NCBI GenBank assembly: GCA_963760615.1
Contig: CAVXDX010000014.1
Span: forward strand, 71,999-135,998
DNA from: an uncultured Candidatus Micrarchaeota archaeon
GTDB lineage: Archaea > Micrarchaeota > Micrarchaeia > Burarchaeales > Fermentimicrarchaeaceae
DNA: 64,000 bases
Direction of reading: 5' to 3'
Shown here: positions 31,578 to 34,200 of the stretch, one piece after another
Layout: each line of letters starts with the position of its first letter
How positions within the stretch are numbered: the stretch's first letter is position 1
Position numbers and translations under genes: made by a program
Notes under the pieces: model-generated
The model's input: the letters and a program-made list of their open reading frames with translations, nothing else
Told to the model about the DNA's origin: nothing
The model's database searches: none

Positions 31578-31739
31578 TTAAGATTGTTTTGTTTTCATTG
31601 GTTGCAAGAAGAATAATAAGAATGCAAAAAACAGATAATACAAGGGTTCATTTAATCCATATCCTAAGAAACCTAGAAATCCGATAAAGCCCAAGTACCA
31701 ATTTAAGTTTACTTTTTCAGTCTTTCTTTTTTCTTTCAT
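31578..31739 (-). CDS. 53-aa membrane microprotein
   Basis: Own translation MKEKRKTEKVNLNWYLGFIGFLGFLGYGLNEPLYYLFFAFLLFFLQPMKTKQS; GFxG repeats; GGTGG upstream. Confidence 0.6.
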   Translation of the reverse strand: MKEKRKTEKVNLNWYLGFIGFLGFLGYGLNEPLYYLFFAFLLFFLQPMKTKQS

Positions 31740-31783
31740 CTTTACCACCCATCAGATAATCTGTCTTGATGAATATAAAAGTA

Positions 31784-31890
31784 TGGGCCCGGTGCGATTT
31801 GAACGCACGACCCCCCGGTTATCAGCCGAGTGCTCCAACCAGACTTTTAGCCCTGTATTATTTAGTATAATACAAGAAAGCTACGGGCCC
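31784..31890 (-). tRNA. tRNA-Ile(GAT) with a 32-nt BHB intron at position 13/14
   Basis: Exon 1 31890-31878 (GGGCCCGTAGCTT), intron 31877-31846, exon 2 31845-31784 (AGTCTGGTTGGAGCACTCGGCTGATAACCGGGGGGTCGTGCGTTCAAATCGCACCGGGCCCA). Central helix TAGC/GCTA with TTT and AAA bulges and a 10-bp intron stem; splicing yields a canonical cloverleaf; CCA not encoded. Confidence 0.9.
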
Positions 31891-32954
31891 CCAGTTACCT
31901 GTCGTAATAACATGTTTTTCTCTAAACCTTTATAACGTTTGCTTTTATTTGTTATCAGAACTCCGGGTATAAAGCCTCCTAACTTAGCAAAATTTTTAAT
32001 TGAATTTAAATCGTAAATTCGTATGCCATCAACTCCACTCCATGACGTTTTTTCTTTACCGAGATGTCCAAATATCTCGTAGGATTTAATTATATGCATC
32101 CATTCCGTAGATAAAGTTGGATGATAGCAGGCTAAATTCAATTCAATACTGTTGTTTGAAACTGAAATACAACCGTCTGCAGAGAAAGCAAATCTAATGC
32201 ACCATCCTATTGTTTTTTCATCTGCATTTTTCAAAAAATTTAAAGAGGGTTGAACCTCACTGAGATAATCTTCCTTGCTTTGACCTCGTCGTGGTGTTTT
32301 TGTATAATTTGGTGATAAGCTAAGTAACTCTTTTGCCAGATAAATGTCATTCACACGAATTGCATAGACATCATCTTTACTAAGAGTTTCGGACGGCATA
32401 AATCTACTGAGTTTAGATAATAATGCTTTCATAAATCTTTTCAAAACTTCATCTTTGGTATAATATGCAATTCTATAGCTATTTCCATGTATTGTTAGTG
32501 ATCCATCGGTAAGCAAACATGTAGCTAAAATGAATTTCAAATTTACCTTGCTTCTCAAAAGAGTATGTAAAAGCTTATTTTTTATTTTAGTCTTTCTTTT
32601 TATTAGAAATGCGCTTTCTAATCGTCTTTTATCTCTAATGGCTCTTACTTGTTCTAAGACTTTATGGATATCTTGAATGTTTTGGATTCTTGAGTTGCCA
32701 CCCTTTACTTGACCCCAGTTTCCAGGTAATTTTTCCTTTATTTTGTTTTCATAAATTTTTAATTTTGGTGCAATTTTGCACATTTTAAAGAATACATCGA
32801 CGGGGAGAGTACGTTCTTCCCTCAGCCATCGTTTGAGGGTTGTTTCACTCACATTCAGTAATTTTGCGGCAGAAGATAAAGTCAAATCATTAAACTTTAA
32901 GGAGTCTTGAAGAAATCTTTTTTGTTGACCTTTTACGAATTTTAATCGTTCCAT
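31881..32954 (-). CDS. LAGLIDADG-family homing-endonuclease-like protein with N-terminal HTH
   Basis: HTH (AAKLLNVSETTLKRW), NWGQVKGG, two LAGLIDADG-like helices (LATCLLTDGSL; IRFAFSADGCI); AT-rich; last codons overlap tRNA-Ile bases 1-10. Confidence 0.8.
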   Translation of the reverse strand: MERLKFVKGQQKRFLQDSLKFNDLTLSSAAKLLNVSETTLKRWLREERTLPVDVFFKMCKIAPKLKIYENKIKEKLPGNWGQVKGGNSRIQNIQDIHKVLEQVRAIRDKRRLESAFLIKRKTKIKNKLLHTLLRSKVNLKFILATCLLTDGSLTIHGNSYRIAYYTKDEVLKRFMKALLSKLSRFMPSETLSKDDVYAIRVNDIYLAKELLSLSPNYTKTPRRGQSKEDYLSEVQPSLNFLKNADEKTIGWCIRFAFSADGCISVSNNSIELNLACYHPTLSTEWMHIIKSYEIFGHLGKEKTSWSGVDGIRIYDLNSIKNFAKLGGFIPGVLITNKSKRYKGLEKNMLLRQVTGGP

Positions 32955-32999
32955 ATGCTATATTTGGAACCATGCTTTTTTAAAAGTACGTATAAATCA

Positions 33000-33019
33000 C
33001 CATACTGAGCTACGGACCC
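33000..33019 (-). other. Isolated tRNA 5' fragment (GGGTCCGTAGCTCAGTATGG)
   Basis: Acceptor 5' strand plus D-stem 5' half, about 25 nt downstream of a TTTAAATA box (33043-33050); no matching 3' half follows directly. Confidence 0.6.
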
Positions 33020-33084
33020 CACCGAATAATTTTAGATGAATATATTTAAATGCCTTGAGTTTCTATACATACTTGGTGATATTT

Positions 33085-34200
33085 ATGGAGGGAAAAACTA
33101 CTTTCAGTTTAATAAAAGCAGATATTGGAAGCTATGCAGGTCACTCAAAGGTGCATGAGGACACTCTCGCGCTTGCTGAGAGGAAGCTGGAGAAAGCAAA
33201 AAAAGCAGGCGTCATACTGGACTTCAGGGTGACTCACTGCGGTGATGACACTGAATTGATAATGACCCACAAGCGCGGAGTGGACAACCCAAAGGTGCAC
33301 AAGCTTGCGTGGGATACTTTTGTTGAGTGCGCAAACCTTGCAAAGAAGATGCACCTCTATGGAGCCGGGCAGGATTTGCTCAAGGATGCATTCTGCGGAA
33401 ATGTGAAAGGCATGGGCCCGGGCAGCGCAGAGATAGAGTTCACGGAGAGGAAGGCAGAGCCTGTCATTGCATTCATGATGGACAAAACGGAGCCTGGTGC
33501 ATTCAACCTGCCGGTCTACAAGGTTTTCGCAGACCCGTTCAACACAGCTGGCTTGGTGATAGACCCCTCTGTTCATCCCGGGTTTGTATTTGAGATTTGG
33601 GACATAATGCAACATAAGAAGGTGTTGATGAAGTCACCTGAGGAGATGTATGACATTCTTGCTTTAATTGGAGCGAAGGGAAGGTACGTGATAAAGAGAG
33701 TTTATCCGAAGCCAGGGGGAAAACTTCCCGCGGATGAGCCGGTTGCATGCATAAGCACAGATAAATTATACCAGATTGCCGGGGAATATGTTGGAAAGGA
33801 CGACCCCTGCGGGGTTATAAGGGCGCAGTCAGGTCTGCCTGCGGTTGGAGAGGTTCTTGAAGGGTTCAGCTTCCCACATCTGGTTTCTGGCTGGATGAGA
33901 GGCTCCCACAACGGCCCTTTGATGCCGGTAGGGGTGAAGGACGCCAAGTGCACCCGTTTTGACGGACCTCCAAGGCTGATTGCTCTGGGCTTCCAAGTCG
34001 GGGATGGAATGCTGGTGGGGCCAAACGACATGTTCGACGACCCGGTGTATGACTACAACAGGTGGAAGGCTGCAGAGATTGCGGACTACATGAGAAGGCA
34101 CGGCCCATTTGAGCCGCACAGGCTTCCGCTTGAGGATATGGAGTATACAACACTGCCTGGCGTGCTGAAGAAGCTTGAGGGAAGGTTCAGCAAGCTCTGA
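33085..34200 (+). CDS. fbp: Bifunctional fructose-1,6-bisphosphate aldolase/phosphatase (class V)
   Basis: IKADIGS..GH, CGDD..L, YGAGQDLLKDAFCGNVKGMGPG, GKDDP, GWMRGSHNGPLMP, GPFEPHRL. Confidence 0.97.
   Translation: MEGKTTFSLIKADIGSYAGHSKVHEDTLALAERKLEKAKKAGVILDFRVTHCGDDTELIMTHKRGVDNPKVHKLAWDTFVECANLAKKMHLYGAGQDLLKDAFCGNVKGMGPGSAEIEFTERKAEPVIAFMMDKTEPGAFNLPVYKVFADPFNTAGLVIDPSVHPGFVFEIWDIMQHKKVLMKSPEEMYDILALIGAKGRYVIKRVYPKPGGKLPADEPVACISTDKLYQIAGEYVGKDDPCGVIRAQSGLPAVGEVLEGFSFPHLVSGWMRGSHNGPLMPVGVKDAKCTRFDGPPRLIALGFQVGDGMLVGPNDMFDDPVYDYNRWKAAEIADYMRRHGPFEPHRLPLEDMEYTTLPGVLKKLEGRFSKL

Follow-up and report, generated by a model that had tools for sequence, protein, structure and literature searches.

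The origin of archaeal tRNA introns at odd positions and of tRNA fragmentation is an old question. To our knowledge, it has so far received one well-documented natural example, that of Caldiarchaeum, and one general idea, namely that introns protect against invading elements. In Caldiarchaeum subterraneum, the insert with a putative recombinase found at tRNA-Thr(GGU) was explained by attP/attB recombination, at a single locus (Sugahara et al. 2012, PMC3293823). Here we describe a tRNA-Ile(GAU) locus in a 64,000-nucleotide stretch of DNA (called the window below; contig CAVXDX010000014.1, positions 71,999 to 135,998) from an uncultured Candidatus Micrarchaeota archaeon, whose genome is a 1.14-Mb assembly of 16 contigs. 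In this locus, an open reading frame (ORF) encoding a protein with a helix-turn-helix (HTH) region and two LAGLIDADG motifs lies between a 5' fragment of tRNA-Ile and a complete, intron-bearing tRNA-Ile gene. We consider it probable that a free-standing homing-endonuclease cassette invaded the single tRNA-Ile(GAU) gene and supplied it with a replacement 5' end.

The locus resembles Caldiarchaeum tRNA-Thr in several respects. Both show an upstream 5' fragment, a putatively mobile insert of 1-2 kb and one same-strand protein gene adjoining the tRNA; in both, the duplicated part of the rebuilt tRNA contains an additional, non-canonical intron, and the arrangement is polymorphic among close relatives. 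In contrast to Caldiarchaeum, the gene found here codes for a predicted HTH-LAGLIDADG nuclease and not for a recombinase, and the same design is met again at tRNA-Ile in members of three DPANN phyla. Fungal mitochondria offer a second comparison, since endonuclease ORFs that bring a substitute gene end are known there in Allomyces atp6 and in Glomus atp6, atp9, cox2 and nad3 (PMC3630166). As in these cases (where the nuclease is of the LAGLIDADG or GIY-YIG type), a free-standing nuclease gene sits in an essential gene, provides a substitute terminus and leaves the native end duplicated, so that our locus has the make-up of a gene-end-replacing endonuclease cassette whose mobility would be driven by the nuclease. 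The fungal ORFs replace 3' ends of protein genes in organelles and involve no intron, whereas here a 5' end of an archaeal tRNA is concerned, together with an intron spliced by the host.

Two further systems are close in other ways. In the collaborative homing described in cyanophages, free-standing F-CphI is encoded beside an ORF-less psbA intron (PMC6083498; also PMC2790892). Likewise, the nuclease gene described here is outside the adjacent small intron, which may interrupt the target and protect the carrier; however, the phage intron is a self-splicing group I intron of a protein gene, and ours is an archaeal tRNA intron that would be spliced by proteins. To date, group I introns have been reported in Archaea from rRNA genes only (PMC6125680). 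With I-DmoI and I-Tsp061I, finally, our protein shares the predicted monomeric double-motif fold and an intron removed by the tRNA splicing endonuclease. The genes of these two enzymes are inside rRNA introns, whereas the present gene is outside the intron, belongs to a tRNA locus and has an added N-terminal HTH. In the literature, which we searched for LAGLIDADG cassettes at DPANN tRNA genes, no description was found. The locus would extend the replacement-gene-end strategy of fungal mitochondrial endonucleases to archaeal RNA genes, and it points to a nuclease family with a defined, highly conserved natural target.

The tRNA-Ile locus and its empty sites in the genus

All features of the locus are on the minus strand and are given in window positions. 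The native tRNA-Ile promoter is recognized by its TATA box, TTTAAATATA (33041-33050), 21 nt 5' of a relic tRNA piece that we call the stub (32999-33019). The stub corresponds to tRNA-Ile positions 1-21, GGGTCCGTAGCTCAGTATGGT, i.e. GGGTCCGTAGCTCAGTATGG(T), and can pair with the acceptor 3' strand CGGGCCC with one G-U pair (T4-G69). Next come an AT-rich promoter-like region, ATTTATACGT ... TTTTAAAAAA (32976-32997, 22-43 nt 5' of the ATG), and the HTH and double-LAGLIDADG ORF of 357 amino acids (aa; 31881-32954), with its ATG at 32954 and its TAG at 31883-31881. The complete tRNA-Ile(GAU) spans 31890-31784 and is made of exon 1 (positions 1-13, GGGCCCGTAGCTT, 31878-31890), which would be the replacement borne by the cassette, of a 32-nt bulge-helix-bulge mini-intron at 13/14 (31846-31877), and of exon 2 (positions 14-73, anticodon GAT, 31784-31845). 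The latter opens with AGTCTGGTTGGAGC directly 3' of the 32-nt insert and ends with the discriminator A at 31784. Positions 1-10 of the tRNA (31890-31881) overlap the last ORF codons, GGG GGC CCG TAG. A previous sequence-only reading of this DNA had described the order promoter, 5' piece, ORF and tRNA-Ile, with a TATA box 5' of the fragment, final ORF codons that are also the first tRNA bases, and a fragment able to pair with the acceptor 3' strand through one G-U; we found each of these elements at the position it had been given.

In the window, the local alignment of the tRNA 5' part with the region upstream of the ORF scored above 200 of 200 shuffles, meaning that the stub repeat is not due to chance. 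The Rfam tRNA signal (29.4 bits) was limited to the 3' part of the tRNA-Ile gene, that is to exon 2. ARAGORN called no tRNA in the window in its default mode and still missed this tRNA-Ile with the intron option, because of the intron in the D-arm.

We then compared the locus with five genomes of the same genus (G001-G005). The flanking DNA was found in all five and the LAGLIDADG ORF in none. In G002, G003 and G005, an uninterrupted tRNA-Ile stands directly behind the same promoter, with ~21-22 nt between the TATA box and tRNA +1, and the same FBP aldolase/phosphatase gene adjoins the locus. These intact genes begin with GGGCCCGTAGCTTAGT, and their positions 17-21 read TTGGT or CCGGT. In G002 and G003 the flanks of the window adjoin, as the two BLAST matches overlap by 8 nt. 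The stub occupies the exact tRNA start of the relatives and matches the tRNA 5' end of the genus at 18 of 21 positions, while exon 1 of the cassette is identical to positions 1-13 of the three intronless orthologues and the exon 2 region is 92-97% identical to same-genus tRNA-Ile over the 62-106 nt matched. The GC content is 0.29-0.36 in the ORF region versus ~0.50 in both flanks. Taken together, the empty sites in three relatives and the lack of the ORF in all five designate the segment 32998-31838 as low-GC extra DNA; judged from this comparison, the 1161-bp segment (31838-32998) is an insertion into the tRNA-Ile gene. Besides the LAGLIDADG ORF, its only long one, it contains two short ORFs (<50 aa) on the opposite strand. 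The sequence-only reading had proposed comparison with relatives lacking the ORF as a check, and in three such relatives an intact tRNA-Ile is seen behind the same promoter.

The tRNA-Ile of the two other genomes, G001 (L006) and G004 (L009), contains a textbook bulge-helix-bulge intron at 3/4, with a CGG/CCG outer helix, an ATAG/CTAT central helix, bulges GGA and AAC and a 9-bp hairpin. Exon 1 is there a 14-nt leader, GGGTCCGGCGGATA, followed by GGG. The leader starts with GGGTCCG like the stub of the window, but at another distance from the promoter, and for this reason we do not claim it as a scar of the same stub; it might be one of an older cassette.

Recurrence of the design at tRNA-Ile

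Looking for relatives of the ORF product in a large protein collection, we obtained 34 homologues with 39-67% identity. Genome and metagenome scans added ~40 loci, including metagenome-assembled genomes labelled Iainarchaeum, Woesearchaeota and Micrarchaeota, and the homologous loci span Micrarchaeota, Iainarchaeota and Woesearchaeota. In all of the ~37 loci with enough flank, the 3' end of the ORF adjoins a tRNA-Ile gene, whose anticodon is GAT in most loci and TAT in two. Relatives with the ORF unlinked to tRNA genes, which would have spoken against the proposed connection according to the sequence-only reading, were thus not seen among these loci. The neighbouring protein genes vary from locus to locus and tRNA-Ile is constant; if the tRNA is the only homology between hosts, this would explain a constant tRNA-Ile site in unrelated neighbourhoods.

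Two arrangements can be distinguished, and they are set apart by one well-supported branch (97/94) in the protein tree. In type A, ORF and tRNA are read in the same direction, the ORF stopping at the 5' end of the tRNA or within it; in type B, the two genes converge tail to tail. The clade that contains the window is of type A and has seven members. Each of them has the upstream tRNA piece (positions 1-21) and, 3' of it, a conserved TTTATACGTTAAAWTTAAAT motif; the 13/14 mini-intron is present in six. The same TTTATACGTTAAAWTTAAAT was observed 3' of the stub in L021, L023, L024, L033, L036, L037, L040 and L044, and the AT-rich region after the stub is probably the promoter of the cassette. In eight type A loci (the window and seven homologous ones), the upstream piece scored above 200 of 200 shuffles. 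Homology among the upstream regions of the hosts starts exactly at tRNA +1, so that the stub looks like the left homology arm or a scar of it. In L024, the internal 5' copy is present and the ORF reads through it. The same plan was found with a distantly related paralogue (26% identical in its HTH region) at a tRNA-Arg(CCU) in a genome of the same order (G015, locus L003): a stub of ~25 nt, a 342-aa ORF (1453-2481) and a tRNA starting at ~2472 with a mini-intron at 9/10. ARAGORN mislabels this tRNA, which has a CCT anticodon loop (Arg), as Gly(ccc).

The type B sister clade comprises L026, L028-L032, L042, L046-L049, L052, L054, L056-L059 and L063. There, the nuclease gene invariably converges on the 3' end of tRNA-Ile(GAU), and a CACCGGAAA-like motif is conserved 5' of its promoter. 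By eye, a T-arm/acceptor-like stub repeating the tRNA 3' end upstream could be drawn in L026, L028 and L047; it was non-significant in most loci and is not claimed as a general feature.

Since repeats of tRNA ends are typical of integrases and the Caldiarchaeum insert has been explained in this way, a recombinase acting in trans is the main rival explanation and keeps some weight. According to it, the segment is a miniature integrative cassette moved by a tyrosine recombinase encoded elsewhere; the 21-nt repeats are attL and attR, the intron came in via attP, and the LAGLIDADG gene is cargo. A repeated tRNA terminus and the gain of an intron in the rebuilt copy are precisely what the model for Caldiarchaeum tRNA-Thr accounts for (PMC3293823). 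However, the insert bounded by the repeat contains no recombinase, and none was found beside the cassette or in the gene tables of L021, L023 and L024. The nuclease is the only constant gene in the ~37 loci of three phyla, always at tRNA-Ile, and the longest identical run of the repeats is 8 nt and falls on the wrong side of the intron. We regard this explanation as unlikely.

The downstream 5' end is the probable working copy

The presence of two tRNA 5' ends raises the question of which one is used. The upstream piece is decayed in L023 (AGACCTG), L039 (CTCCTCTAGCACAG), L040 and L044 (GTAAATTAG), where neither an acceptor stem nor a D stem is possible; in these loci the downstream copy is therefore the working one. 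In the window, the tRNA-Ile(GAU) is the only one of the genome, so that the rebuilt gene is essential and presumably functional.

If the upstream end were used instead, the whole insert could be a single endonuclease-bearing intron of ~1.15 kb at 13/14, with the upstream piece as exon 1 and the internal GGGCCCGTAGCTT as a mimic inside the intron. The window stub is well formed and would suit this role: in its acceptor strand only one pair is a G-U, its D-stem GCUC is fully complementary to GAGC, its TAGC may pair with an intron GCTA, and a cut after TC would join A14 to give a canonical tRNA. LAGLIDADG genes do occur in archaeal rRNA introns. Yet a bulge-helix-bulge sought between the stub and the 3' splice site could not be drawn: the pairing is confined to two 4-bp helices around a 3x3 loop (GTAT/ATAC and TAGC/GCTA), without staggered 3-nt bulges, and the local structure of the mini-intron is much stronger. 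The decayed pieces mentioned above could not act as exons, the intron-only and remnant alleles described below use the downstream 5' end behind its own promoter, and the upstream piece also includes positions 14-21, whose duplication would not be expected from a simple intron. When 31700-33100 was scanned with Rfam at permissive settings, no group I or group II intron was obtained; the tRNA was the sole match over its gathering score, and three other matches (E 0.99-8.1), far under their cut-offs, were not of intron families. The 1.15 kb as a whole thus lack the features of an endonuclease-bearing bulge-helix-bulge intron, and we give this explanation hardly any credit.

A split tRNA would have separate halves at different loci. 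Here the complete gene is downstream, and a scan of the genome for a second tRNA-Ile(GAU) anticodon arm and for an orphan 3' half, the latter suggested by the sequence-only reading, found neither. Both the long-intron and the split-tRNA readings are unlikely. Among the three options left by that earlier reading, the homing element inserted in the D-arm with a replacement 5' exon gained from the empty sites, the recurring design and the decayed stubs. The nested intron of ~1.1 kb, for which it had itself failed to draw a convincing bulge-helix-bulge, lost ground with the structure and the Rfam scan, and the split half did so with the single tRNA-Ile(GAU) anticodon arm and the missing orphan.

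The mini-intron and the host splicing endonuclease

The mini-intron at 13/14 consists of a TAGC/GCTA central helix, bulges TTT and AAA and a 10-bp hairpin. In the predicted precursor fold (-45.2 kcal/mol, z -4.3), the acceptor stem is stacked on the UAGC/GCUA helix, followed by the UUU bulge, the 10-bp hairpin and the AAA bulge. Predicted cuts after the second base of each bulge join U13 to A14, giving a spliced product equal to the intronless orthologues up to position 13. On these predictions, the mini-intron has the 4-bp helix and the two 3-nt bulges of a bulge-helix-bulge, and its removal would restore a canonical tRNA; since the acceptor stem takes the place of the outer exon helix, the motif is a relaxed one. 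In 12 distinct loci we found the TAGC/GCTR helix, both 3-nt bulges and a covarying hairpin whose pairing is kept.

The host has a single splicing endonuclease, EndA, of 389 aa and of the three-unit epsilon2 type (G000:C12:53606-54775; L093:1204-2373, minus strand). It is a near full-length match (E 8e-148) to the epsilon2 enzyme of ARMAN-2 (Ca. Micrarchaeum), 4FZ2, which cleaves relaxed motifs (PMC3488258). The host enzyme is thus of the type that acts on relaxed, non-canonical sites. In the genome, introns are present in 16 of the 38 tRNAs found by ARAGORN, which fits an epsilon2-type EndA. Outside the window, ARAGORN called a tRNA-Ser(tga) with an intron at G000:C4:65388-65490; as its acceptor stem is the same as that of tRNA-Ile and its anticodon loop is CTTATA, it is probably an intron-bearing tRNA-Ile(UAU).

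Decay of the nuclease gene and survival of the intron

We surveyed 401 genomes of the class with a strict 14-nt pattern of the mini-intron. The pattern matched 28 places; eight are tRNA-Ile introns, in eight genomes including that of the window, and many of the others are chance matches in coding DNA. One of the eight intron-bearing tRNA-Ile genes has a full ORF (the window), three have an ORF remnant, three are ORF-free and there is one further case. The remnants, 5' of the tRNA in L075, L090 and L091, correspond to the last 20-53 codons, and L090 also retains a decayed stub. In L071 (from the family of the window itself), L077 and L081, the intron is present and nothing of the ORF is recognizable; the tRNA is directly behind a promoter or a neighbouring gene. 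These remnant and intron-only alleles look like the cycle of gain, decay and loss of a homing endonuclease, with the intron surviving.

A candidate promoter of the rebuilt tRNA, TTATAAA (31929-31935), is situated within the conserved RYKG codons of the ORF, 45 nt 5' of tRNA +1. The remnants L075 and L091 have kept TTATAAAGG ~44 nt 5' of tRNA +1, and L090 has TATATAGG; in type A loci, the spacing between box and tRNA +1 is 43-50 nt. The sequence-only reading had considered a shared transcript of ORF and tRNA probable, with RNase P cutting the mRNA near its stop codon. The TTATAAAGG box is probably a separate promoter of the rebuilt tRNA, which in that case need not depend on read-through from the ORF. 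By eye, an intron can be placed within 25 nt of the tRNA 5' end in most type A loci, at 6/7, 9/10, 13/14, 15/16, ~20/21 or 23/24.

The locus and its relatives show the same gene in four states: with an empty site, with the full cassette, with a nuclease gene in decay and with the intron alone. As such, they would illustrate one route by which tRNA genes acquire introns at odd positions and come to be accompanied by orphan fragments, and the series makes this route testable. A broader proposal is that, in DPANN archaea generally, such cassettes give rise to non-canonical tRNA introns and to orphan tRNA fragments. The intron would arrive with the replacement gene end, protect the rebuilt gene against renewed cutting or against deletion between the repeats, and be left as an ordinary host-spliced one after decay of the nuclease. 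We put this forward tentatively and at somewhat less than even chances.

In one lineage (L021, L033, L036-L039, L075 and L077), tRNA-Ile is always directly after an AMMECR1-family gene, and this site was seen in all stages, i.e. full cassette, 20-codon ORF remnant and intron only.

The HTH-LAGLIDADG protein

The ORF product matches the Pfam LAGLIDADG_3 family with 23.2 bits (cut-off 22.5) and, between residues 20 and 60, shows weak matches to HTH domains. When 26 homologues were aligned, the aspartate-glycine pairs at the ends of the two LAGLIDADG helices proved conserved: D150 of the LLTDG motif is invariant and D260 of FSADG is kept in at least 90%. The AlphaFold model of the 357-aa protein (pLDDT 93) has the pseudo-dimeric alpha-beta-beta-alpha-beta-beta-alpha fold. 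With Foldseek, it matched I-DmoI, I-Tsp061I, I-SceI and I-OnuI (E 1e-4 to 1e-6), the best structural matches being double-motif LAGLIDADG proteins, namely WhiA, bI3 maturase, I-Tsp061I, I-DmoI and I-SceI; the TM-score by target was 0.65-0.71 for I-DmoI and I-Tsp061I, with up to 0.71 for I-DmoI. The family profile run against PDB sequences gave chance homeobox matches only, and the relationship came from the fold search. Like the gene of a LAGLIDADG homing endonuclease, the ORF is present or absent at one conserved site. Altogether, the conserved motif aspartates and the fold matches indicate a monomeric LAGLIDADG protein that bears an additional helical region for DNA binding at its N-terminus. 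As modelled, the ORF product is a monomeric double-motif protein with its catalytic residues in place and a predicted nuclease.

The presence of WhiA and bI3 maturase among the best structural matches, the fused HTH domain and a link to one tRNA gene without exception could also suit a domesticated protein, either a WhiA-like DNA-binding regulator of tRNA-Ile or a splicing helper, that is no longer a mobile nuclease. Against this stand the conservation of both LAGLIDADG aspartates, the patchy distribution of the ORF across phyla, the five same-genus genomes in which it was not found, the low GC content of its DNA relative to the host, and the fact that the ORF decays while the tRNA stays. We consider domestication very unlikely.

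A model for the gain of the cassette

We propose that the cassette carried its promoter-like region, the HTH and double-LAGLIDADG gene and tRNA positions 1-21 split by the 32-nt intron at 13/14, and that it was inserted after position 21 of the resident tRNA-Ile. The resident 5' end, behind the native promoter, would have become a non-functional stub. The working tRNA would then be made from the downstream copy, the broad-specificity epsilon2 endonuclease removing the mini-intron and RNase P setting the 5' end. Mobility would be driven by the endonuclease: it would cut an intact tRNA-Ile in the D-arm, and repair from a cassette-bearing copy would follow, with the stub (or the scar of an arm) as left homology arm and exon 2 as right arm. 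In the rebuilt gene, the mini-intron may break up the cut site, preventing re-cutting, or the direct repeat, preventing deletion, and it could outlast the nuclease gene.

Several observations weigh against this model. For the repair of a break, 13-21 bp make short homology arms, and inserts flanked by a directly repeated tRNA end are also the mark of integrase-type integration. The stub differs from the tRNA of the genus at 3 of 21 positions and the cassette copy at one position only, so that the stub is termed native from its place behind the promoter and not from its similarity. In the type B relatives, which are arranged tail to tail with the tRNA, a significant repeat is mostly lacking. 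L039, L050, L051 and L061 bear the nuclease gene without a D-arm intron, meaning that the intron is not indispensable. Finally, the Pfam score of the ORF product is barely over the cut-off.

Sequence 3' of the tRNA

Directly 3' of the tRNA, a 56-aa hydrophobic ORF was found at 31578-31748 on the minus strand (GC 0.36-0.37). Since homologous sequence is present in G003, this ORF is probably native and outside the cassette.

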